DNA of 64,000 nucleotides from Thermoplasmata archaeon (GCA_052326305.1 JBKQPJ010000008.1:28498-92497), one strand, 5' to 3'. Shown: positions 40,224 through 58,537, counted from the first letter of the stretch. Translations and numbers: made by a program. The notes: generated by a model from the sequence alone, not told the origin.

Positions 40224-41186
40224 CTATCGGTCCGAGGCTCGGTGGTCCCCGCACGCTCCGCAGCGGGTCGCCCACGGCGAGTTCACGGTGCGGCACCGGT
40301 GGCAGACCCAGCGCGTGGTCCGGGAGGCGGAGAACGGGATCGCGTTGCGTCCCGTCGAGGGCAGGGTGGCGCCGGTCGGGGCCCCGGCCTCGCCCGGCGG
40401 TCCGCGGTCGGTCAGCTGGTAGGGCTGGTTCGCGGCCGCCCACTCCCATTGCTCCCGCTGGGTGAACGGGCCGTGACGGCCCCTCCAGAGGAGAAAGGCG
40501 CCGAAGAGGCTCGCGGCCGCGAGCCCGATCGTCGCGAAGAAGGCGTAGCCGCCGCCCCAGTTCAGCTTCGAGGCGCACTCGATGCACGAGCCCGGAATGA
40601 CCCCCGCGGTCACCCCGCCCAGGAACGACGGGCACGTCGTCTGGTTCGCCGAGAGGGCCGCACAGTAGCCCGCCGCCTGGGGGCCGGGACCGAGGGCCAC
40701 GGTGAACCCGACCATCCCGAGGGCGAGAAGACCGACCGCCAGCGCGAGGACGATCGCGAGGGTGAACTGCGCGCGGCCGAAGGAGTACCCGAGGAGCCCG
40801 AGCCCCAGCAGGGCCCCCGCGCCGAGGGCCCCGGCGACGATCGCGCCGAGACCTAGGTCGAGCGCCCCGTACGCCGACCCCACGACCCCCGCCACGGAGC
40901 TCGAGATGTTCGCGCAGGGGTCCGGGTGCCAGTCCCGCCAGCTCGAGCACGAGGCCGACCCCCCGGCGTTGAACTCGACCTCGACGTTCTGTACCTGTTC
41001 GTTGGTCAGCTCGCTGGCGGAGACCCTCGTGGCCGTCCACCAGGGTCCGTTGATCGACAGGGCCCCGAGGACCGCCGCGGCGAGGAAGAGGAGGACCGCG
41101 ATCCGGCGGTGGAGGTCCACGTAGTGGAACGGTCGATGGCGACCGTGTCCGGCGGATCCGTTCGTCGGCCCTGGTCCCCCCGACAC
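40224..41186 (-). CDS. multi-pass membrane protein with C-terminal zinc ribbon
   Basis: Five or six Gly/Ala/Leu-rich TM helices. C-terminal WVCHRCRTVNSPWATRCGACG zinc ribbon. Confidence 0.55.
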   Translation of the reverse strand: MSGGPGPTNGSAGHGRHRPFHYVDLHRRIAVLLFLAAAVLGALSINGPWWTATRVSASELTNEQVQNVEVEFNAGGSASCSSWRDWHPDPCANISSSVAGVVGSAYGALDLGLGAIVAGALGAGALLGLGLLGYSFGRAQFTLAIVLALAVGLLALGMVGFTVALGPGPQAAGYCAALSANQTTCPSFLGGVTAGVIPGSCIECASKLNWGGGYAFFATIGLAAASLFGAFLLWRGRHGPFTQREQWEWAAANQPYQLTDRGPPGEAGAPTGATLPSTGRNAIPFSASRTTRWVCHRCRTVNSPWATRCGACGDHRASDR

Positions 41187-41389
41187 GCTCCTTACTCTCC
41201 GATCGGATCGAGGCCCCGAGGGACCCGCCGACCCCGACCCGAGAGGCGTCTTATCGCTGACGCCGCCGGCGCGGCGGTTCCGGCGCCGGGACCGTCGAGC
41301 GGCAGGCCCGCCCAGAGCCCTCGGGGTCGGTCCCCCCGCCGGCTATATGGGCAGCTCCGGGCTGAGCGCCCACCCGAACGCGAGGCAAC

Positions 41390-48223: not shown

Positions 48224-48371
48224 CGGTCCCGCGGGCTCCCTCGACCGAGGGAGCGACCGGGGCGGGAATAAACCCTCGTTCGAGCCGAACCGCTGTCGGT
48301 CGGTCCGGCCGCTCGCCTCCGGAGCAACTCTTATGCCGCCGGTCATCTCCGTGGCGTCCGAGGAGACAGGA

Positions 48372-48758
48372 ATGGCCTGGACGCAGCAGGAGGTCCGGGA
48401 GCTGAAGGAGGGCCGGTACATGCTCATCGACGAGGAGCCGTGCCGCATCATCAGTATCCAGACGTCGAAGCCCGGGAAGCACGGAGAGGCGAAGGCGCGG
48501 ATCGATGCGGTCGGGGTGTTCGATGGCTCGAAACGGAGCGTCGTTTTCCCCGTCAAGCACAAGGTCCAGGTGCCGCTGATCGGCAAGAAGCAGGCCCAGG
48601 TCCTGTCGATGACCGACTCGGAGGTCCAGCTGATGGACCTCGAGTCCTACGAGACGTTCATGCTGCCGCTCGACGCGGAGACGAAGGCGGCGGTCTCTCC
48701 CGGAGCGGAGGTCCAGTACGTTGACGCGATGGGGAAGCGCCGGATCACCCGGACGTGA
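48372..48758 (+). CDS. eif5a: translation initiation factor 5A (aIF-5A)
   Basis: ATG at 48372 preceded by ggag. Hypusination loop [14 protein letters not shown]. 128 aa. Confidence 0.9.
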
Positions 48759-48882
48759 GCCTCGGCACCGCCGGTGACCGGGGGACCCGCGCGGTTCATT
48801 AATAAGGAGGGCCCGGCATGAAACACCTGCCCGCGCCCCCTCGGCGACATCGTCAGGTGGCGGAGCGCATGGGAGAAGGAGC

Positions 48883-51800
48883 GTGTCCGGTCCGGGAGGC
48901 GTCGGACCCCTACCATCGTCCCGGTTGACCCGGATCCTTCAGGAGAAGGCGGAGGCGCTTCGCAAGAGGCGCCAGACCGCCGAGGTCGCCCTGAAGGAGG
49001 CCGAGGAACGGGTGGGCCAGCTCGATCGCTTGGGGATCTCCCCCGCGGGGGCGGCCGAACGGCTGCAGCAGCTGCACGAGCTCGTCCGCCGGTCGGACTG
49101 GGACCAGGTCGAGACCAGCGCGCAAGCGCTCCTCGCGGAGCTCGCCGCCGCCGTTCCCGGGCTCCTCGAGGAACGTCGCGTCCGCACGGGGGAATCGCTC
49201 GGGCGGCTTACGGGCCTCGGCATCCCCATCCCGCCCGAGCTCGCGACCGAGCTCGAGGCGCTCGCCCGCCCCGCGGCGGGCGGCCCGTGGACCGATTCGC
49301 TCGTCCGCCTGATGAAGGTCGAGGACGGGATCCGCCACGCCGCGACCGCGTACCTCGAGGGCGTACGGGGCCGCGCGATCTCGGTCGCCCGATGGTCCGG
49401 CCTCGGGCCCGAGCGGCTCGCCGAGTTCGAGCGCCTCCTCCCCAACACGGTCGACACCACCCGCGACGACGCCCTCGCCGACGCGGTGACGACGGTCCAG
49501 CGGAACCTCGTCGACGGCCTCCCGGAGGCCGCCGAGCGGCATCGCACGGTGCGGGAGAACGCCGAGCGCCTCCGTGCGACCGCCGAGGAGCTCGGCGCCG
49601 TGACCGGGCCGCTCGACGCCGCCCTCCGGGACGACGCGGCCGCCCCGATCGACCGCTGGCCGGAGACGGTGGCGGCCATCGACGCGGCGATCCCCGAGGT
49701 CGGCGAGGGGCTGCGCGAACGTTCGCGCCAGGTCCTCGAGGGCCTGCGCGGGTCGCTCGGCACGGTCGCCGAGTTCGAGGTCGACGCCGCCGGGGCGGTC
49801 GCCGCGGTCGAGTCCGCGCTCGCCCGGCTCCCGGCCACCGGACCGCTCGAGATCACCGGCCTCCTCGCGGAGGCACGGGCCGCGGCGGAGGAGCCGATCG
49901 TGACGGTCGTCGCGGGGCTCCTCGACGAGGTGCGTCCCCGCATCGCGGGGGCCCGTCGCCTCGGGCGCGACCCGAGCGAGGTGTTCTCGGCGATGAACCG
50001 GGCCCGCGAGGCCCTGCGCCTCAAGATCTACTCCGAGGCGCTCGCCGCCGCCCAGGAGGCCCTCGACCGCGTCAGCGGGCTCACCGAGGACCTCGACGCC
50101 GCCCGCGGGGAGCTCGGCACCCTGCAGGAGATGCTCCTCAAGTTCCGGGCGGCGGGGTTCCCGACCGAGCCGTTCGACGCCCCGGTGGCGCGCGTCCGCG
50201 CGCTCCTCGACCGGGCCGACGTTCCCGCCGCCCGGCAGGCGCTCCAGGAGGCGGTCCACCTCGCCGGCAAGGAGGCGCTCCGCTTCTTCGTCGACCGTTG
50301 GGCAACCCTCGACAAGACCCGCGCGTACGCGCACGAGCACGGGTTCGTCTCCCCCGAGACGGAGCAGGTCCTTGGGGAGGCCCGTGCCCTCCTCGACGCG
50401 GGCGACCTCGGCGGCGCCGCCGAGCTCCTCGCCCGGTTCGAGGTCGAGCTGCGTTCGAGCGCCGGGCCGTACGTCGCCCGGCGCGTCGAGGAGATGGAGA
50501 AGGCGTTCGTCGAGATCACCGACGGCGCCCTGACCGCTCCGGTCCGCCGCCTCCTCGCCGACGCGGACGTCACGCTCCGGGTCAAGCAGGACGTCGTCGG
50601 CTCGGTCGAGAGCCTGCACCGGGCGGAGCGGGAGTTCTCCGCCGTCTTCGGCGCCCACGCCTCCGCCCTCGTCGAGGGCCTCGAGTCGGAGGTCCGCGTC
50701 CTCAGCTCGATGGGCGGGACGAGCGACGAGATCCAGCGGCAGATCGACGAGGTCCAGCAGATCTTCAACATGGGCGATTTCGTCCAGGCGTCCCGCGCGT
50801 CGCAGGAGATCCGGACCCGCGCGCGCCAGCAGCAGCTCCTCCGCTCCGACGAGGCGATCTCCCACGCCAAGCTCGCGCTCGTCGAGCTCGAGCCGATGGG
50901 GCTCGACCTCACCTCCCTCCGCCCGCTCCTCGACGACGCGCAGTCGGCGGCGCGCGAGAACCGCTACCTCGACGCCTACCGCACGGCCACCGAGCTCGAG
51001 GAGGCCGCGGGCCGGGGCCGCGCCGCGGCCCAGACGGTCGTCGAGCGGATCTCCCGGCTCCAGGACCAGCTCGGCCGGCTCCATGCGAGCGGCGCGGACC
51101 CCTCGCCGTTCTACGAGGGGCTCCGCGAGGGGCGCGAGCAGCTGAACGCCCTTCGGTTCGACCGCGCGCGGACCCTGCTCGACGACCTCGACGGGCGCAT
51201 CTCCGCCGAGGCGGCCCGGATCGAGACCGAGCGGCTGCTCGGCGAGGTCGGTCTCCTGGTCGAGGAGGGCCGGCAGCTCGGGGCGCCGGTGGAGCCGATG
51301 GTCCGCCGGCTCGAAGGGCTCCAGACCGAACGGCATACCGCCGCGCCCGAGGCGACCCGCACGGGTTCGGTGCTCCTCCATGACGAGATCCTCGCCGTGC
51401 TGCGTCCGATCCTCGAAGAGAACCTCCGGTCGCTCGAGCGCGACCTCGACATCGCCCGCTCGGCGGGCGTGCCGCTCGACAAGATCGTCCCCCCCCTCGC
51501 CGAGGCCCGCCGGCGCGTGGCGCTTCCGGTGCCGACCGGCGCGGCGGCGCTGATCGACGAGGTCCGCAGCGCCCTGATCAGCACCCGCGGGTTCGTCGAG
51601 CACGCCGAGCGGGCGGCGAAGCGGGTGCACGAGGCGCTCGCCCAGGCGGACCTGTTGCGCGTGGAGGTCGGGGAGCTGCGCGCCCGGGCGGAGCGGTTCG
51701 ACACCTTCCTCGCCGGTCGGGAGTACGTACGGGTCGTCGAGCTCGCGGGCCCGCTCGAGCGGGAGCTGCACCAGGCGACGTACCGTCACGTGTCGAAGAC

Positions 51801-53376
51801 GCTCGCCGGCTTCCAGGCGACGGTCACCCAGCTGCGCCGCGACGGGGCGAACACCTCCGTCGCGGAGAACCTGCTGCACCAGGCCCGGATGTCGCTCGAC
51901 GAGGGCCGGCCCCTCGATTCCATCCAGCTCGCCGCCCGCAGCGAGCGGGAGCTCGAGCGGGCCGACCTGCAGCACAAGCTCGCGGAGGGGTCGATCGAGG
52001 CGGCCGAGCGGGCGATCGCGGGGGCGCTCGCCGAGGGGGCCGTCGCGACCGAGGCCCAGGATTCCCTGCGGAGCGCGAAGTCGTCGTACGTCAAGGGATC
52101 GTACGCCGACGTCTTCGAGCGGATGATCTTCATCTCGGACCTCGTCGCGACGGTGCGGGACGGCCTGCGCCGGGCCCGCGAGGCGATCGCGGTCGCCGAC
52201 CGGCAGCTCACCGAGGCGAAGGGCCTCGGCGCCGAGGCGGCGGACGCCACCGGCGAGCTCGCCGAGGCGCGCCACGAGCTCGACGCCGGCCACTACTCTC
52301 CGTCGGTCCGCCGGGCGCGCGAGGCGACCGAGATGGCCCGCTGGGCGATCGACCGCGCGTTCGCCGCCCCGCTCGGGGAGCTCCGGCGCCAGGTCGACGC
52401 GGTCCGCGCCGAAGGGATGGCGGGAGAGCTCGAGCCGCTCGAGGCGCTCGTCACCGGTGCCGAGGCCGCCGCCCGCGCCCACCAGTGGACCGAGGCGCGC
52501 GGCATGATCCTCCAGGCCGAGGACGCCGCCCGCCGTCTGTTCGAGGAGACGCTCGACGGACGCTGGCGGGAGGTCGAGGCCGACGCGAAGGAGACCGGGC
52601 CGGTGTCGCCCTCGGAGACCGCCCGGCGGGCCGACGTCGCGAGGAAGCTCGGAGAGCTGCGCTCCTCCCGGGACGTCGGGGGGGCCTTGCGCCTCGTGCA
52701 CGAAGAGCTCGAGATCGTCCGCGGCCAGCGTAAGGAGGTCGTTCTGCGCGCGGTCGCCGCGCTGCGCGACCGCCTTTGGGTCGGCGAGCGGCTCGGCGTC
52801 GACACGACGCCGGCGATGCAGACGTTCGGGGAGGCCCGCGCGTCCGCCGAGGCGGGGCGCCTGGGCGAGGCGACCGAGCTCCTGGCCCGGTCCGGTGCGG
52901 CCCTCGCGGAGGCGGTTCGGGGCCCGCTCGCCCGCCGGCGCAAGGAGCTCGCCTCCGAGGTGACGTTCGCCGAGGAGGGGCTCCACGTCAGCGTCGGGTC
53001 GGTGAAGGAGGAGCTGCGCGCCGCCGACGAGCTGCTCGGCGCGGGTCGGCTCCTCGACGGCGGCGCGAAGCTGCTCAAGATCGAGGAGGACCTGAACCTG
53101 CGCAAGTCGCTCCACCGCGAGCTCACGAACCTGCACTTCCTGATCGACGCGGCGCTCGGCCGGGCGGAGGAGCGGCAGATCGACACGTCGCGGGCCCGCG
53201 CGCTCCTCGACGAGTCGCTGCGCCTGCGCCCCGTCGACTACCCGGGGGCCCTCCAGAAAGCGCGCGAGGCGCTGAAGCTCCTGCAGGCCGACGGGGTCGT
53301 GATCGGGGAAACGGCGGCGACGGCCGCTCCCTCCTCGACCCCGTTCTGGCCGTTCCGGCGACCGCCGCCGTCCTGA
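48883..53376 (+). CDS. giant (1497 aa) alpha-helical repeat protein, hypothetical
   Basis: Continuous ORF rich in A/E/R/L with at least 12 recurrences of a module like [E/R]AR.LLD.GD...A..LL spaced about 90-110 aa apart. No enzymatic motif. TATA-like attaataa at about 48797 upstream. Confidence 0.6.
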   Translation: MSGPGGVGPLPSSRLTRILQEKAEALRKRRQTAEVALKEAEERVGQLDRLGISPAGAAERLQQLHELVRRSDWDQVETSAQALLAELAAAVPGLLEERRVRTGESLGRLTGLGIPIPPELATELEALARPAAGGPWTDSLVRLMKVEDGIRHAATAYLEGVRGRAISVARWSGLGPERLAEFERLLPNTVDTTRDDALADAVTTVQRNLVDGLPEAAERHRTVRENAERLRATAEELGAVTGPLDAALRDDAAAPIDRWPETVAAIDAAIPEVGEGLRERSRQVLEGLRGSLGTVAEFEVDAAGAVAAVESALARLPATGPLEITGLLAEARAAAEEPIVTVVAGLLDEVRPRIAGARRLGRDPSEVFSAMNRAREALRLKIYSEALAAAQEALDRVSGLTEDLDAARGELGTLQEMLLKFRAAGFPTEPFDAPVARVRALLDRADVPAARQALQEAVHLAGKEALRFFVDRWATLDKTRAYAHEHGFVSPETEQVLGEARALLDAGDLGGAAELLARFEVELRSSAGPYVARRVEEMEKAFVEITDGALTAPVRRLLADADVTLRVKQDVVGSVESLHRAEREFSAVFGAHASALVEGLESEVRVLSSMGGTSDEIQRQIDEVQQIFNMGDFVQASRASQEIRTRARQQQLLRSDEAISHAKLALVELEPMGLDLTSLRPLLDDAQSAARENRYLDAYRTATELEEAAGRGRAAAQTVVERISRLQDQLGRLHASGADPSPFYEGLREGREQLNALRFDRARTLLDDLDGRISAEAARIETERLLGEVGLLVEEGRQLGAPVEPMVRRLEGLQTERHTAAPEATRTGSVLLHDEILAVLRPILEENLRSLERDLDIARSAGVPLDKIVPPLAEARRRVALPVPTGAAALIDEVRSALISTRGFVEHAERAAKRVHEALAQADLLRVEVGELRARAERFDTFLAGREYVRVVELAGPLERELHQATYRHVSKTLAGFQATVTQLRRDGANTSVAENLLHQARMSLDEGRPLDSIQLAARSERELERADLQHKLAEGSIEAAERAIAGALAEGAVATEAQDSLRSAKSSYVKGSYADVFERMIFISDLVATVRDGLRRAREAIAVADRQLTEAKGLGAEAADATGELAEARHELDAGHYSPSVRRAREATEMARWAIDRAFAAPLGELRRQVDAVRAEGMAGELEPLEALVTGAEAAARAHQWTEARGMILQAEDAARRLFEETLDGRWREVEADAKETGPVSPSETARRADVARKLGELRSSRDVGGALRLVHEELEIVRGQRKEVVLRAVAALRDRLWVGERLGVDTTPAMQTFGEARASAEAGRLGEATELLARSGAALAEAVRGPLARRRKELASEVTFAEEGLHVSVGSVKEELRAADELLGAGRLLDGGAKLLKIEEDLNLRKSLHRELTNLHFLIDAALGRAEERQIDTSRARALLDESLRLRPVDYPGALQKAREALKLLQADGVVIGETAATAAPSSTPFWPFRRPPPS

Positions 53377-53391
53377 GCCCGGCGACCGGGC

Positions 53392-53847
53392 CTACCCGGA
53401 GCCGAACCCGGAGGCCGCGGAGGGCATCGGCATCCCGGGAGGGACCCGGATCGGTCCGAGGGGGAGGCGGTCGTACTCCACGTTGTGGCGCAGCCCCCGG
53501 CGCCGCAACAGCGCGGAGACCTGCTCGGTCACCTGCACGACCTCCTGGCAGCGCGACGGCTTCGCAAAGTAGAACTCGACGCGACGTTCGTCGGTGATCG
53601 GGAAGATCAGGCGGAGCCCGAAGACGTCCTGCCGGTTGTAGCCGACCGGCTTCTTGTCCCGCTTCAGGTCCCGCAGGTTCTCCTCGAGGAGCGCCTCCGG
53701 AGACAGGGGATCGGACTCCTTGACGAACGGCCGGTTCATCTCGACGACGCGGCGGTGGATCTCGGGGTACACGCGGACGAGGTCGCGGAACGAACGTTTC
53801 GGCTCGAGGAGGATGTGGCCGCTGCGCGCCTTCACGGGCGGGGTCAC
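53392..53847 (-). CDS. hypothetical conserved protein (151 aa)
   Basis: Non-repetitive ORF with balanced composition. No family recognised. Confidence 0.4.
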   Translation of the reverse strand: MTPPVKARSGHILLEPKRSFRDLVRVYPEIHRRVVEMNRPFVKESDPLSPEALLEENLRDLKRDKKPVGYNRQDVFGLRLIFPITDERRVEFYFAKPSRCQEVVQVTEQVSALLRRRGLRHNVEYDRLPLGPIRVPPGMPMPSAASGFGSG

Positions 53848-53930: not shown

Positions 53931-54338
53931 ATGTCCGGAACGCCGCTCCCCGCCCAGGGGTCCCCCATCTACGCCCCCCCCAGCCAGATCCCGGTCGTCA
54001 CGACCCCGTTCCTCCCCGGATACCGCGTGACCCGCGTGATCGGGGTGACGTTCGGCCTGATCGTGCGCTCCCGCGGGCTCGGGCGGAATATCGTCGCCGG
54101 GTTCCGCAGCCTCGCCGGCGGGGAGATCACCGAGTACACCCAGCTCCTCGAGCAGTCGCGCCACGAGGCGATCGCCCGGCTGACCCAGCACGCGCAGAGC
54201 CTGGGCGCGAACGCCGTCCTCTCCGTCGGGTTCGACACCTCCGAGATGAGCGAGATCATGACGGAGATCATGGCGTTCGGGACGGCCGTGGTCGTCGAGC
54301 CGGACCCGTCGCCCGCCCAGCCGGTCAGCCTCCGGTAG
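53931..54338 (+). CDS. YbjQ/UPF0145 (DUF74) family protein
   Basis: GRNIVAGFRSLAGGEITEYTQLLEQSRHEAIARLTQHAQSLGANAVLSVGFD is the UPF0145 core. Confidence 0.65.
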   Translation: MSGTPLPAQGSPIYAPPSQIPVVTTPFLPGYRVTRVIGVTFGLIVRSRGLGRNIVAGFRSLAGGEITEYTQLLEQSRHEAIARLTQHAQSLGANAVLSVGFDTSEMSEIMTEIMAFGTAVVVEPDPSPAQPVSLR

Positions 54339-54611
54339 GTCCTCGGGCCGGGCGAGAGGTTGGGCGGCGGGCGAGGACGCTGGGACCGGAATTGCCGGGG
54401 GGCTCGGTCGGATCGAGACGAGCGCCCCCGGGGGCCCGGGCCACAAGGTCGGTAGACCGCAGCCGGCCGATCGGAGCGATCCCGCTCCAGCGTTCGGTCC
54501 CGGCCCCCCACCGATCCCGCGCCTCTCTCGGGCCGGAGAAGGGATTGGACCCGTTCCACCCCCGAACTCGGCAGAAAGGTTGAAACGTCCGCCCCGCTAC
54601 CGAGCGCCGGC

Positions 54612-54713
54612 GCTCCCGTAGTCTAGTGGTCAAGGATAGAGGCCTCTCGAGCCTTTGACGCGGGTTCAAAACCGGGCGGTTAGGGCCGTCCGGGGAAACT
54701 CCCGCCGGGAGCA
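54612..54713 (+). tRNA. tRNA-Glu (anticodon CUC) with a putative 29-nt intron in the T-loop (position 59/60)
   Basis: Manual fold:
- Acceptor GCTCCCG / CGGGAGC.
- U8 A9.
- D arm GTCT-AGTGGTCAAG-GGAT.
- Anticodon stem GAGGC / GCCTT with loop CTCTCGA (CTC at 54646-54648).
- T-stem GCGGG (54660-64), TTCAAA (54665-70), then T + CCCGC (54700-05) after 54671-54699.
- Discriminator A at 54713.
- No encoded CCA. Confidence 0.6.
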
Positions 54714-54745
54714 CTTACCACCGCGGGTAGTGCCACGTTACCTTG

Positions 54746-54805
54746 GGCCCCCGGAGGCCGACCCGAAGGATCAGCGGGCCTTTCACGAGTCCGGAAACGG
54801 GTGGA
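54746..54805 (+). repeat. direct repeat family R2, copy 1 (about 60 nt, immediately downstream of tRNA-Glu)
   Basis: cccccggaggccgacccgaaggatcagcgggcctttcacgagtccggaaacgggt is about 80 percent identical to 59157-59212. Confidence 0.7.
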
Positions 54806-55117
54806 TTGGCGAAGCAGGGGTTCCCTCCCTGCTCGTTCGGGGGCATTCCGGTTGCGTCAGAAACCCGCGAACGCCGCTGCTATACTCGGCCAAGGTCGCC
54901 TGTGAGCGCTGGGAGCGTAGCTGAACCTTCCACGCGACCGACAATTCAGCCCGACTGCCCGTGGTAGGTTCTCGCGAGGGGATGTGGACCTCGCCGCGGC
55001 GGAGCACGGTCCGACGGGCTCTGCCTCCCTCCCAATCCTGTTCGAGGTGGCAAGTTCCCAATCACGAAGGTAATGCTAAAGTATAGCACGCTGGTGCGCT
55101 GGCTCGCGGGATAGACG

Positions 55118-56467
55118 ATGCGGGGTCAAATCCGAAGTGCCGAGATCTGGGTCGTAGTCGTTATCGCGGTGATGGTGTGGGCGTCGGCGGGGGTCCTGGG
55201 TCTTGAGGCGGGGCACGCCCTTTCGCGAGGTGCCGTGCACAACCTTCCCTCGGTAGATCGAAAGCTTGGGGCTATCCTCCTGTCGGAGAACGAAGTATCG
55301 AGCCCCTCGGCGAGTCCACGACTCGACCCCGCAGCCGCGCAAGTCTACGCGGGCGAACTCACCAGCCCCAACGCGCAACTAAACGGATTCTTCGGAAGCT
55401 CAGTGGCGATCAGCGGCACGACGGTCGTCGTGGGGGCTTGGGGTGAGTCGGTCTCGGGTCAGAACAATGCGGGCCACGCCTACACGTTCAACGCCAGGAC
55501 GGGCGCCCTGGTCGCGACGCTTACAAGCCCCAACGCTCAGACGGGTGGGCTCTTCGGCCGCTCGGTGGCGATCACCGGCACGACGGTCGTCGTCGGGGCC
55601 CCCCAAGAGACGGTCTCGGGTCAGGGCGATGCGGGCCATGTCTACACGTTCAATGCCAAGACGGGCGCGCTGATCTTGACGCTTACAAGCCCCGACGCGC
55701 AACTCAACGGATTTTTCGGAAGTTCGGTGGCGATTAGCGGCAAGACCGTCGTGGTCGGGGCTTACGGGGAGATGGTCTCGGGTCAGACCGATGCAGGTCA
55801 TGTCTACACGTTCAACGCCAAGACCGGCGCGTTGGTCTTGACGCTCACCAGCCCCGGCACGCAGTCCTACGGTATCTTTGGCGGCTCGGTCGCGATCGGG
55901 GGCACGACGGTCCTCGTCGGGGCCGACGGCGAGACGGTCTCGAGTCTGAGCGGTGCGGGCCATGCCTACACGTTCAACGCCAAGACGGGCGCATTGATCT
56001 TGACGCTCACGAGTCCCAACCCGCAACTCAATGGATACTTCGGCTACTCGGTGGCGATCGGGGGCACTACGCTCGTCGTCGGAGCTGCCGACGAGACGCT
56101 CTCCGGGGGTCTGATCGCTGCGGGCCATGCCTACACGTTCAACGCCAAGACCGGCGCGCCGATCTCGACGCTCGCCAGCCCCAATGCCCAGGTCGACGGG
56201 GCTTTCGGCGGCTTGGTGACGATTAGCGGCAGGACCGTCGTGGTGGGAGCCTACGGCGAGGCATTCTCCGGCCTGAGCCAGTCGGGCCATGCCTACACGT
56301 TCAATGCCAAGACCGGCGGACTGATCTTGACGCTCACCAGCCCCAATGCACAGACTTCAGGAGTCTTCGGCAGCTCGGTGGCGATGAGCGGCAAGACTGT
56401 CGTGATCGGGGCAGATTTTGAGTCGGCCCTGGGTCAGAGCGGCGGGGGACATGTTTACCTGTGGTAG
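55118..56467 (+). CDS. secreted FG-GAP repeat (integrin-alpha-like beta-propeller) protein
   Basis: Signal peptide, then eight tandem 46-aa units (LTSPNAQ.NG.FG.SVAI.G.TVVVGA..E.VSGQ..AGH.YTFNAKTGAL...) giving 138-nt DNA periodicity from about 55330 to 56440. Confidence 0.8.
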   Translation: MRGQIRSAEIWVVVVIAVMVWASAGVLGLEAGHALSRGAVHNLPSVDRKLGAILLSENEVSSPSASPRLDPAAAQVYAGELTSPNAQLNGFFGSSVAISGTTVVVGAWGESVSGQNNAGHAYTFNARTGALVATLTSPNAQTGGLFGRSVAITGTTVVVGAPQETVSGQGDAGHVYTFNAKTGALILTLTSPDAQLNGFFGSSVAISGKTVVVGAYGEMVSGQTDAGHVYTFNAKTGALVLTLTSPGTQSYGIFGGSVAIGGTTVLVGADGETVSSLSGAGHAYTFNAKTGALILTLTSPNPQLNGYFGYSVAIGGTTLVVGAADETLSGGLIAAGHAYTFNAKTGAPISTLASPNAQVDGAFGGLVTISGRTVVVGAYGEAFSGLSQSGHAYTFNAKTGGLILTLTSPNAQTSGVFGSSVAMSGKTVVIGADFESALGQSGGGHVYLW

Positions 56468-56587
56468 GTTGGCTACGAGCGGGGCCCCGAGACATCCGCC
56501 AGATGCGAGGAGACCCGCTTATCGGCGAGGGATATCCGGTCATCCCGACGCGATCGACCTGCGCCTCCATCGCGCCCGAACGGGCCC

Positions 56588-57226
56588 TTGTCACCAGGGA
56601 GGATCTGCTCGACTTCGGAATTGACAGGTAACGCTTGCCTGGACCACCTGGTGAGACTCTTTCGCAAGGTGTGGTTTGGCGAGCCAATCGATTCGCAGGG
56701 TTCTTCATCAAGACCAATGTCATGGTCCCTCGCCGAGGGGGCTGCTTCGATGACGAAACACTGGCCGGGTCCTACCTACGAAGTGCGAGCGAACTTCAGA
56801 GCTCCGTTGAAGTTTGTGTACCGGTGGTGCACCGATTACACGCCGAAGGACGCGAGGTACGAGTCGGAGCATTACCAACGACGCATCCTACGGCGGTCAG
56901 TTCGTGAGGTAATCTATGAGGATTTGGAGGATACCAAGGAAGGTTGGTATTGGACCCGACACGTGGTTCGCCTCTACCCGCCGAATCGCTGGCACTCCAA
57001 CTCGGTTGGGAGCCACCGGGAGGTCTCCCTGGAGTATCGCCTCTCCCCGCTCCCCGGGGACCGGACCCAGCTAATCCTCACGGCTCGGCGGCGTCCGTCG
57101 GGCGTCGGAGGGAAGAATCCTCCGAAATCGCAATGGGAGCGTTCCATCACGGTGGCATGGAAGAGGTTTGGCCGGGTTCTCGAGCGAGACTATCGGAAGT
57201 CCTCACGGCGGCGCGCACGAACCTAA
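56588..57226 (+). CDS. SRPBCC (START/Bet v1-like) domain protein
   Basis: From about the internal Met (MTKHWPGPTYEVRANFRAPLKFVYRWCTDYTP...WYWTRHVVRLYPPNRW...) the fold pattern matches polyketide-cyclase/SRPBCC proteins. The N-terminal 55 aa may not be translated. Confidence 0.5.
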   Translation: MSPGRICSTSELTGNACLDHLVRLFRKVWFGEPIDSQGSSSRPMSWSLAEGAASMTKHWPGPTYEVRANFRAPLKFVYRWCTDYTPKDARYESEHYQRRILRRSVREVIYEDLEDTKEGWYWTRHVVRLYPPNRWHSNSVGSHREVSLEYRLSPLPGDRTQLILTARRRPSGVGGKNPPKSQWERSITVAWKRFGRVLERDYRKSSRRRART

Positions 57227-57347
57227 TCGGTACTCACCCGCCGGCGACCTCGATGATCGCTGAGAGGGAGTGAGTTCCAGGTCAGTGCGCCTTTCTGCCC
57301 ATAGGTGTTCGAATCGGGCGGGTTCTCTAAGGGGTAGTCGAAGGGCT

Positions 57348-57401
57348 GGGTTCTCTAACGGTGCGGGATGCCGCCGTTCTCGCACAACGCGTGCGGATCG
57401 C
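57348..57401 (+). repeat. direct repeat family R3, copy 1 (GGGTTCTCTAACGGTGCGG... about 54 nt)
   Basis: gggttctctaacggtgcgggatgccgccgttctcgcacaacgcgtgcggatcgc. A partial extra copy gggttctctaa lies at 57320-57330. About 80 percent identical to 63367-63420. Confidence 0.7.
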
Positions 57402-57928
57402 GGTCCTCCCGAGAGCGCGCGCGTCGCCCGCCACTGGTGCGAAGGTGTTCGGGCGTCCGGCTACCTGTCCGTTGAGGAAGGCGGGGCTGCGATCGCAACT
57501 CAGGTCGTTGTGCTTCCCCCCGACACGCCCCTGACGGTCCGAGGCCTTCTGAGGACTACGGACCAATCAATCGGGCTGCCGGTTCAGGTCCCGCCGAAGG
57601 CACTTCTCGATGGGCGTAGGCACAACCCCTTTTGAACCCGAGCGCGAACCGGTTCTTGCTCCGTAACCTGGCCGTGTTCGACTTTTCTCGTACGTATCGA
57701 TCGCCCGTCCACAGACTTTCGAGTTCTGACAGTATCCGCCCCCCACACAATACGGTGATTACGCGTCCTACGCACCAGGTACTCGACAGTGCTCTCCCAT
57801 CCTAGGCCACCCGTGCGACAGACCCGAGGGCGAGGCAACGTCGTACTATTCCAGGAGGCCGCGCCGTCACGATGAGGGTGGCCTCCCTTCTTTTCAGCAG
57901 CGCCGCACCCGTCGGTCCGAAGGGCTAC

Positions 57929-58537
57929 TCAACTTGGAAAAAACTCCGCCACCATTTGGCTGCCCCAGAAATGATTGAGGGAGGCCCCCGCGCCGTCGTC
58001 GACGTTCACATAGAAAGTGTACGAGCCCGCTGCGACGGTATCCGAGAACACCACTGAGGCGGTGAGCTGGTAGTCACCAGTCGGCTGGCTTGAAGGAACG
58101 ACATCCCAGGATGCGGGTTGCGACACAGCGCACGAAGCCGCGGATGTGGCGATAACGAGCTCCACTTCGTCCGAGGTGCCGGAGACGTGGCTGAAGGAGA
58201 GAATGGAGTCGTCAGTCACCAGGATCGTACCTGCCGACGGAACTGTAATGGAGACTAGACCACCTTGTTCGTTTACGCACTGCGACTGATTGAATTCAGT
58301 ACGGGTGAAGGTGTAGGAGCTGGCCATGACGATGCCCGCTCCGGCCGGACCCGTGGCTCCGGTGTGCCCCGAGGCCGTTAGAGCGATACCGAGAGCCGAG
58401 CCCCCGAGGACTAGCGCGACAACTCCGAGAACAATAGGGAGCCTACTAGGGGAGATCGCCCCGAGACTTCGAGGATTGGGTGGCGACACCGGTCGGTCGG
58501 CTGGGATAGGACTGCTCTCGGGCGACGCGGCGGACAT
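57929..58537 (-). CDS. membrane-anchored extracellular protein, paralog family A
   Basis: Ser/Pro-rich N-terminus, one TM (LPIVLGVVALVLGGSALGIAL), then an about 150-aa ectodomain ending ...SQMVAEFFPS. Paralogous to 61369-61986. Confidence 0.55.
   Translation of the reverse strand: MSAASPESSPIPADRPVSPPNPRSLGAISPSRLPIVLGVVALVLGGSALGIALTASGHTGATGPAGAGIVMASSYTFTRTEFNQSQCVNEQGGLVSITVPSAGTILVTDDSILSFSHVSGTSDEVELVIATSAASCAVSQPASWDVVPSSQPTGDYQLTASVVFSDTVAAGSYTFYVNVDDGAGASLNHFWGSQMVAEFFPS

Follow-up and report, generated by a model that had tools for sequence, protein, structure and literature searches.

A giant Thermoplasmata protein family built from a predicted all-helical 63-residue repeat

The 4.5-kb gene and its repeat array

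The window analysed here, a stretch of 64,000 nucleotides (nt) from a Thermoplasmata archaeon, carries a 4.5-kb open reading frame (ORF) that the original prediction, made from the sequence, had read as a giant alpha-helical protein assembled from a recurring LLD-x-GD...A...LL module. The ORF lies exactly at 48883-53376 on the plus strand, begins with GTG and encodes 1497 amino acids (aa). It follows the gene of aIF5A, the neighbour that had been named and that Pfam confirms (Table 1), by 125 nt on the same strand. By its composition, the product has a mass of 162.5 kDa and an isoelectric point (pI) of 5.3, is net acidic and contains no cysteine; its Ala, Leu, Arg and Glu contents of 16, 13, 12 and 11%, respectively, agree with the richness in these residues that had been pointed out.

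The G+C content of the region is 71-77% and long ORFs are present in several frames; the coding frame therefore needs proof and cannot be assumed. In DNA of 74-77% G+C, such an ORF could be over-extended, could occur by chance or could represent several genes fused by a frameshift, and the minus strand does carry a 1408-aa ORF at 48910-53136. The plus-strand ORF has G+C contents of 0.80, 0.50 and 0.95 at codon positions 1, 2 and 3, a signature that it shares with the real genes of the window, and the value at the third position (GC3) stays at 0.86-0.99 in every 300-nt interval. The uniformly high GC3 along the ORF excludes a frameshift or a mosaic of genes. The antisense ORF shows the mirror pattern (0.955, 0.49 and 0.80) and an implausible composition, rich in Leu, Gly, Arg and Pro and nearly free of Lys, Ile, Asn and Tyr, and is thus the shadow of the real gene, as had been supposed. 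In addition, a protein from a metagenome-assembled genome (MAG), ACLQD8_07255 (NCBI, Thermoplasmata, hypothetical protein), is 100% identical to the product, and a further 232 homologs show 55-82% identity over 91-100% of its length, while homologs of similar length extend down to 17% identity. The conserved N- and C-termini and the high-confidence structure models described below also contradict a chance ORF, which leaves that explanation with a negligible probability. In summary, 48883-53376 is a real, well-conserved gene and not noise driven by G+C content. The original prediction had spoken of small archaeal genomes; a small genome is not supported for this host, and the contigs of related MAGs reach 1.8-4.2 Mb.

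The protein (hereafter the query) contains 24 repeat units with a spacing of 62.6 ± 1.5 residues. The long helices of these units start at residues 14, 73, 136, 195, 256, 321, ~384, 447, 509, 571, 633 and 695 in the first half and at residues 759, 822, 887, 948, 1010, 1074, 1138, 1202, 1265, 1327, 1390 and 1453 in the second half. In each unit, a short helix (~15 aa) leads through a G-D turn into a long helix (~40 aa), which is followed by a G-x-D/P loop of ~5 aa; the consensus is EARAALRAGDYAEALELLRRAEEELRRAALRRAEERLAELERELARARELGVD. The five peptides quoted in the original prediction were all located, at residues 437-458, 499-520, 680-708, 1383-1398 and 1437-1464, and the LLD-x-GD...A...LL motif drawn from them covers only the N-terminal third of the unit, namely the short helix, the turn and the start of the long helix. 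The module does recur, although its copy number is 24 rather than the "at least 12" counted earlier.

The periodicity was significant in each comparison that we made. The autocorrelation of a 35-sequence family profile peaks at an offset of 62 (z=7.3 against column shuffles), with harmonics at 126, 189, 312-315, 439, 501, 627 and 755 and a heptad signal at offset 7 (z=5.7). When the alignment was compared with itself by hhalign, off-diagonal alignments of 450-1130 columns appeared, each shifted by a multiple of ~62 residues (E=1.8e-13 to 2e-7), and the comparison of the 24 units with one another as hidden Markov models (HMMs) gave a mean score of 7.3, as against 2.8 for column-shuffled units (Mann-Whitney p=1e-35). 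In homologs that are 14-18% identical to the query the period is even stronger (z=16.8 at 62 and z=13.1 at 126), and a repeat HMM built from distant proteins alone finds 18-21 units in most of them and places the query units in register, if weakly. Since the period is retained in the distant homologs and in their own HMM, the register is a property of the family and not a by-product of G+C content. The mean identity per unit ranges from 0.28 to 0.56 in a 242-sequence family alignment, with maxima in units 6-7, 10-11 and 17; because the units are individually conserved, the array is ancient and has not been homogenised. The 63-aa repeat is a previously undescribed type, absent from Pfam, NCBIfam, the PDB and BFVD as searched.

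Table 1. Coordinates of the giant gene, its signals, its conserved segments and its neighbours (positions in the window unless a locus is given).
Feature	Position	Strand	Basis or remarks
Giant repeat protein, coding sequence	48883..53376	+	GTG start, TGA stop, 1497 aa
24-unit array, ~63 aa each, residues 14-1469	48922..53289	+	AlphaFold2 secondary structure, periodicity, unit stack
N-terminal peptide LPSSRLTRILQEKAEAL, residues 10-26	48910..48960	+	Invariant columns R17-A23
Conserved stretch of units 6-7, residues 336-392, EEPIVTVVAGLLDEVRPRI...RLKIYSEALAA	49888..50058	+	Invariant columns
Most conserved patch family-wide, units 16-17, residues 988-1036	51844..51990	+	Deep alignment A4, 26 sequences
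C-terminal tail W-P-F-R-R-P-P, residues 1489-1495	53347..53367	+	Conserved to 24% identity
TATA-like CATTAATAAGG	48797-48807	+	Alignment of aIF5A-to-giant intergenic regions, 15 loci
Conserved GCATGAAAC, ~10 nt after the TATA-like box	48816-48824	+	Same 15-locus intergenic alignment
Shine-Dalgarno-like GGGAGAAGGAG, directly before the GTG start	48871..48881	+	GGAGG or GGGGG at the same place in orthologs
aIF5A gene, 129 aa, hypusine-site motif KPGKHG	48369..48758	+	Pfam IF5A-like_N E=2e-15, eIF-5a E=1e-5
Convergent neighbour, 151 aa, N-terminus MTPPVKARSGH...	53392..53847	-	71 loci and L090
Coiled-coil zinc-ribbon gene	L004 4916-5983, L005 4603-5958, L092 2895-3815	Same as giant gene	Three RING-type lineages

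Predicted fold and conserved segments

Two overlapping AlphaFold2 (AF2) models, covering residues 1-800 and 701-1497, were computed from the 35-sequence alignment. Both are wholly helical and confident, with mean predicted local distance difference test (pLDDT) scores of 86.9 and 85.7, respectively, and in both of them short helices of 12-19 residues (typically ~15) alternate with long helices of 34-43 residues (typically ~40). A turn of 2-3 residues connects each short helix to its own long helix, and a loop of 4-7 residues follows the long helix. When 22 units from 35 sequences were stacked, hydrophobic residues appeared in the short helix at positions -16, -12, -9 and -6/-5, followed by G at -2, D at -1 and an aromatic residue at 0, and the long helix showed an a/d-type seam that continues without a break through positions 3/4, 7, 10, 14, 18, 21/22, 26, 29, 33 and 36. 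The unbroken seam indicates that the long helix is buried over its full length.

We then examined how the helices may pack by mean-field direct coupling analysis (DCA) of all pairs of neighbouring units, pooled over 242 members of the family (4,000 sequences, with an effective number of ~2,200). The strongest couplings, with S and L denoting the short and the long helix, are S(-16)-L(10), S(-9)-L(3), S(-5)-L(3), S(-13)-L(6) and S(-13)-L(13), and together (16 pairs at z>3) they correspond to a hairpin in which the short helix runs antiparallel to the N-terminal half of the long helix of its unit. The couplings between units are weaker. They favour consecutive long helices that run parallel with a stagger of 17-22 residues, 2.7 standard deviations (sd) above other diagonals, and antiparallel contacts of residues ~19-37 of a long helix with the short helix that comes next. 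A zigzag solenoid, with its long helices antiparallel, comes out slightly less likely in this analysis, at 2.2 sd against 2.7 sd for the parallel stagger. The connectors are so short that they force a stagger whatever the model.

From these data, the simplest model would be a chain of three-helix bundles joined by continuous helices, that is, a spectrin-like connectivity at ~60% scale, which the models and the covariation support moderately. In this arrangement, each short helix would form a TPR-like antiparallel hairpin with the N-terminal half of its own long helix and would also pack against the C-terminal half of the long helix before it. Successive long helices would be parallel with a stagger of ~20 residues, and the result would be a continuous chain of short three-helix bundles with ~30 Å per unit, up to ~70 nm long if straight. 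The earlier suggestion of an alpha-solenoid or a spectrin-like rod is thus retained in part: the all-alpha tandem repeat stands in the AF2 models and the spectrin-like up-down-up path fits the helix and loop lengths and the DCA, while membership in the spectrin family does not stand (see below). The chain may instead adopt a supercoiled or more compact arrangement rather than a straight rod.

The same hairpin also raises the possibility that the protein is not a rod but a superhelical solenoid of the TPR kind, with a role in peptide binding or as a chaperone of client proteins. The motif of short helix, turn and long helix follows TPR logic (A..LL..GDY..A..L), one unit of the distant homolog P0150 passes the Pfam thresholds of TPR_2 (35.1 versus 27 bits) and ANAPC3 (43.7 versus 27.2 bits), the deep-family profile matches the Hop/STI1 TPR domain weakly in the PDB (E=0.012-0.019), and some homologs are annotated as TPR proteins by the Joint Genome Institute. 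However, the unit has 63 aa instead of 34, a second helix of 40 residues with connectors of 3-5 residues forces a stagger that is foreign to the canonical TPR superhelix, Pfam gives no TPR match in the query at E<=1, and Foldseek returned no TPR structure. We therefore consider the TPR-like solenoid unlikely and prefer the chain of bundles.

Four segments stand out by their conservation (Table 1). In the N-terminal peptide, the core L-x-x-x-L-Q-E-K-A is retained at 17% identity, as seen in the 26-sequence deep alignment A4 and in the N-termini of P0163 and P0184. Residues 336-392 are near-invariant in close relatives, with A357 and R375 invariant also in the deep alignment, and they overlap the only internal stretch of low AF2 confidence (residues 351-390, nt ~49933-50052, pLDDT 49-62). 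Judging from the models, this segment may be a hinge, a partner site or a region that folds upon partner binding. The third segment, residues 988-1036, follows the pattern G..T..AENLL..A....L.EG....A..LA..SE.ELER..LQ and contains most of the few invariant positions of the family; in A4, E1023, E1025, L1029 and Q1030 are invariant and G988, A994, A1001, E1021 and A1034 are at least 90% conserved.

The fourth segment, the C-terminus, exists in two forms. In the clade of the query, a disordered linker (residues 1475-1488, pLDDT <50) leads to an invariant WPF(R/x)RPP tail, and the query itself ends in WPFRRPPPS. In distant homologs, the C-terminus is a C4HC3-type finger that scores 26-28 bits against Prok-RING_1 (PF14446), whose gathering score is 29.1, and the same C-terminal columns of the deep-family profile match the RING-H2 fingers of Arkadia, RNF165 and RNF126 in the PDB at E ~0.02. 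In P0184, a beta-sandwich-like segment precedes the finger. The finger has no counterpart in the query, which has the WPFRRPP tail in its place. The same small gene lies downstream of RING-type and tail-type genes, which supports their positional orthology.

Upstream signals, distribution and gene neighbourhood

The TATA-like CATTAATAAGG and the GCATGAAAC that follows it lie ~60-85 nt upstream of the start codon and are conserved amid divergent GC-rich sequence in most of the closer loci. The giant gene therefore probably has its own promoter, so that its adjacency to aIF5A need not imply co-transcription.

The start codon itself varies among orthologs. In 63 orthologous loci, the codon aligned to the GTG start (48883-48885) is ACG in 45, ATG in nine and GTG in five. 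Twenty of the ACG loci (L010, L011, L015, L019, L021, L025, L027, L031, L039, L043, L044, L046, L049, L064, L069, L071, L073, L074, L079 and L080) lack a canonical start codon (ATG, GTG or TTG) in frame from the upstream stop up to the invariant N-terminal motif; the first one to follow is found 22-197 codons beyond this motif. A G-rich Shine-Dalgarno-like element precedes the aligned ACG. This suggests near-cognate ACG initiation in most orthologs, and ACG starts would explain why many database homologs have 1,393-1,470 aa and 93-97% coverage, as N-terminally truncated calls. A literature search on ACG starts in archaea returned nothing relevant; if real, these orthologs would represent a rare archaeal case of near-cognate initiation.

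A phmmer search of 1.84 billion cluster representatives gave 150 hits. Those of full length align collinearly with the query, and most of them have 1,380-1,630 aa, also at 17-25% identity. The named members of the 30 clusters examined are all MAGs of uncultured Thermoplasmata/Thermoplasmatota, one of them labelled Methanobacteriota, and the close relatives are soil and peat MAGs that include one Candidatus Lutacidiplasmatales genome. The family is found only in uncultured Thermoplasmata archaea, with its total length held across the class. Some hits are about twice as long (P0191, 3106 aa; P0211, 3129 aa; P0206, 2710 aa; P0479, 3406 aa) and could be tandem fusions or duplications. A second giant ORF of >1,500 aa without a Pfam match was also seen in L004 (13078-16593), 2.5 kb from the family member.

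For the gene neighbourhood, related loci were scanned with a shallower alignment, which extends to close orders only. The aIF5A gene lies immediately upstream in all 73 loci in which tblastn detected it, including L001-L003, where the giant protein is 24-25% identical to the query, and also in L090 (P0130, 32%) and L091 (P0137, 25%). It adjoins none of the RING-type loci examined (L004-L006, L087-L089 and L092). This distribution could be taken to indicate a platform for translation or the ribosome that is tied to aIF5A, in which the RING-bearing relatives would be Listerin-like E3 ligases and, in the query clade, the SH3-like domain of aIF5A might be bound by the WPFRRPP tail. Ribosome quality control involves eIF5A, aIF5A is upstream of every tail-type locus examined, and the distant homologs combine ~1,500-1,600 aa with a RING-H2-like C-terminus. 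However, PDB searches revealed neither sequence nor fold similarity to Listerin, the query has neither a RING finger nor a cysteine, no ubiquitin, E1 or E2 gene was seen near the giant gene, and the promoter-like element of the giant gene weakens the tie to aIF5A. The link between the tail type and aIF5A is also confounded by phylogeny, as it splits just two clades. We regard this explanation as improbable, more so than the TPR-like solenoid.

Downstream, the convergent neighbour is shared by close relatives and a RING-type homolog. In L092, a 125-aa homolog with 39% identity occupies the same position beside a RING-type gene, the product of which has 14-18% identity to the query, and the 204 homologs of the neighbour are all hypothetical proteins of Thermoplasmata. 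It has no match in Pfam, NCBIfam or PADLOC. It was also compared with ScpB as a possible divergent form and shows no similarity.

In two deep lineages, the giant gene abuts SMC-ScpAB, in different orientations. L001 (12379-17622) and L091 (11679-16398), which are of the tail type (24-25% identity), carry a convergent ScpB-ScpA-SMC cluster, while in L087/L088 (809-5829), which are of the RING type (19%), the giant gene directly follows SMC-ScpA-ScpB in the same direction. In both lineages it is ScpB that is adjacent. One way to explain this arrangement would be a role in chromosome organisation together with SMC-ScpAB, in which the giant protein could, for instance, act as a long ruler or tether between condensin or the nucleoid and another cell structure. 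Against it, SMC, ScpA and ScpB are absent from the 64-kb window and from roughly 80 close loci, the adjacency could be a leftover of ancestral synteny, and the acidic giant protein has no DNA-binding domain. We regard such a dedicated chromosome factor as unlikely.

In three RING-type lineages, a coiled-coil protein with one to three C-terminal zinc ribbons (FPCPKCGT...CYACGA) is encoded 18-43 nt upstream of the giant gene on the same strand and is likely its operon partner; the window contains no such partner gene. Overall, the loci have a housekeeping context (EF-1alpha, S10, aIF5A, SMC, MCM and AdoMet synthetase), and none of them lies in a mobile or defence island except L089.

Several other features of the window were noted. 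In one long frame at 43007-~48100 on the minus strand, a class-I aminoacyl-tRNA-synthetase-like N-terminal part, in which Anticodon_1 is the sole domain detected (E=7.5e-12), is joined to a C-terminal DUF835 domain (E=4e-15) by ~600 aa of low-complexity sequence rich in Pro, Glu and Ala. With its listed start at 48586, the ORF would run into aIF5A, and this start is too far upstream. The DUF835 part keeps its place upstream of aIF5A in 46 related loci. A 135-aa ORF at 53931-54338 on the plus strand resembles YbjQ/UPF0145 by eye, and the tblastn signal of the antisense ORF 53969-54559 on the minus strand reflects this overlapping gene. The G+C content falls from ~0.75 to 0.61-0.65 over 54500-58000, just after tRNA-Glu(CTC) at 54612-54699, and the first gene of this stretch (55118-56467) encodes a secreted-looking FG-GAP repeat protein; from its composition, the stretch may be an acquired region beside the tRNA. 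At 40224-41342 on the minus strand, a multi-pass membrane-looking protein ends in a RanBP-type zinc ribbon (E=5.8e-5, under the Pfam cut-off), another terminal zinc ribbon in this genome. An Rfam scan of the window gave no RNA family.

A candidate scaffold and its relation to known systems

Taken together, we favour the view that the giant protein is a cytoplasmic, fixed-length, all-alpha scaffold or tether, to which we assign a probability of about 0.55 from its sequence and the models. A cytoskeletal or scaffold role had been raised in the original prediction and is plausible. A cytoplasmic location is suggested, with moderate support, by the lack of an N-terminal hydrophobic segment and by the zinc fingers of the homologs. 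Docking sites for partners would be provided by the N-terminal peptide, by two or three conserved units inside the array (6-7 and 16-17) and by the C-terminus, where the docking module would be the WPFRRPP tail in the query clade and elsewhere a RING-like finger, sometimes placed after a beta-sandwich. The neighbours aIF5A, the 125-151-aa protein and, in the two deep lineages, SMC-ScpAB point to a housekeeping role; that this role could lie in chromosome or cell organisation is the weakest step of the proposal. Support is weak for a function as scaffold, tether or ruler with docked partners and for a link to SMC-ScpAB or aIF5A.

Several observations weigh against this interpretation. The AF2 predicted template-modelling scores of 0.40-0.43 do not fix the long-range geometry, the covariation between units is weak (z at most ~4), and some couplings, such as L(3)-L'(25) and L(7)-L'(3), depart from the geometry of a straight staggered rod, which hints at a more compact superhelix. 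The net acidity of the protein speaks against direct DNA binding. As for the neighbours, the adjacency to aIF5A may be inherited synteny without a functional link, and that to SMC-ScpAB occurs in two of the ~9 lineages sampled. Finally, the cluster look-ups of the 30 representatives revealed no cultured carrier of the family.

A bolder form of the scaffold proposal would make the protein an archaeal counterpart of spectrin-type cytoskeletal rods: a ruler or tether of ~24 bundles, ancestral to Thermoplasmata, that holds a partner at each end, cooperates with SMC-ScpAB in the organisation of the chromosome or the cell cortex and carries an exchangeable RING-like or WPFRRPP docking module. We offer this form as speculation that is more probably wrong than right by a wide measure. 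Some members of the Thermoplasmata lack a cell wall, and we know of almost no archaeal cytoskeletal or scaffold proteins beyond the actin, tubulin and ESCRT families. In this respect, a class-wide 160-kDa family in a housekeeping context, with a new 63-aa repeat, a fixed copy number, unit-by-unit conservation, exchangeable terminal modules and neighbours from translation and condensin, is a good candidate for a missing archaeal structural system. It offers structural biologists a clean target and archaeal cell biologists a candidate ruler or tether to set against SMC-ScpAB and aIF5A. The family is uncharacterised and class-restricted, while its general kind, the tandem alpha-helical repeat scaffold, is well known. 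Literature searches on archaeal Prok-RING, giant Thermoplasmatota proteins and Thermoplasma spectrin-like proteins returned nothing relevant.

The comparison with known families gave no significant match for the query. In Pfam, the best matches were DUF5790 (E=0.035) and Spectrin (PF00435, E=0.6, 11.1 bits versus a cut-off of 29.9); NCBIfam gave nothing meaningful (Rad50, 15 bits versus a cut-off of 700), and the PADLOC defence models gave no family at E<=0.01 for the query, P0163 or the downstream neighbour. A phmmer search of the query against the PDB had no matches at E<=1. The deep-family profile found weak or compositional PDB matches only, to a designed three-helix bundle (E=6e-5) and an alpha-actinin rod (E=7e-4) as well as to Hop/STI1 and, for the C-terminal columns, to RING-H2 fingers. 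With Foldseek, neither model had a PDB match at E<=0.001, nor did the one model that was compared with BFVD; the top non-significant matches were vinculin, PRC1, EzrA, designed helical repeats, MukB and phage tape-measure proteins. The weak similarities to the designed bundle, alpha-actinin, PRC1, EzrA and vinculin all concern rods made of helical bundles and speak for the scaffold. A long two-stranded coiled coil of the SMC, Rad50 or myosin type is not compatible with the helices, which conserved turns break every 15 or 40 residues.

Among the systems that share single features with the family, phage tape-measure proteins and helical rulers are likewise long, helix-rich and conserved in length, and the top BFVD matches are tape-measure or tail proteins. 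However, these matches are non-significant (E at least 0.02, root-mean-square deviation 40-80 Å) and the gene context is cellular housekeeping without a prophage. Listerin (Ltn1), the eukaryotic E3 ligase of ribosome quality control, is a protein of ~1,560 aa with HEAT repeats and a RING domain. The distant members resemble this architecture in having ~1,500-1,600 aa of helical repeats and a C-terminal RING-type finger, but the repeat is of another type, a RING is missing from the query, a ubiquitin system is not apparent, and no Listerin chain was among the listed matches of the PDB profile search (E<=10) or of the Foldseek searches of the PDB. Prok-RING_1 resembles the C4HC3-like finger of the distant homologs, just under its gathering score; the 1,400-aa repeat region lies outside that family, and the tail of the query clade is free of cysteine.

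The resemblance to TPR proteins lies where the two helices meet: the short helix with its G-D turn and the first part of the long helix read as an A/B hairpin whose antiparallel contacts are backed by covariation (S(-16)-L(10), S(-9)-L(3) and S(-13)-L(6)) and whose turn has the small residues of a TPR (G/D at -2/-1). In contrast to the 34-aa period of TPR, the period here is 63 aa, the B helix is stretched to 40 residues, and the 24 copies are fixed in number and individually conserved; the period and the lack of a TPR match in the query exclude membership in that family. With the rods of spectrin, alpha-actinin and EzrA, the protein shares all-alpha tandem repeats and heptad-patterned helices, and with spectrin it would also share the up-down-up path in which a long helix runs from bundle to bundle. 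The spectrin unit is ~106 aa with three helices of ~30 residues, whereas the unit of the giant protein is 62.6 aa with helices of ~15 and ~40 residues; actin-binding, EF-hand and membrane-anchor domains are absent, and the family is restricted to Thermoplasmata. The unit length, the insignificant Pfam Spectrin score and the lack of a significant Foldseek match rule out membership in the spectrin family. In the model that we favour, the repeat would combine the hairpin logic of TPR with the connectivity of spectrin.

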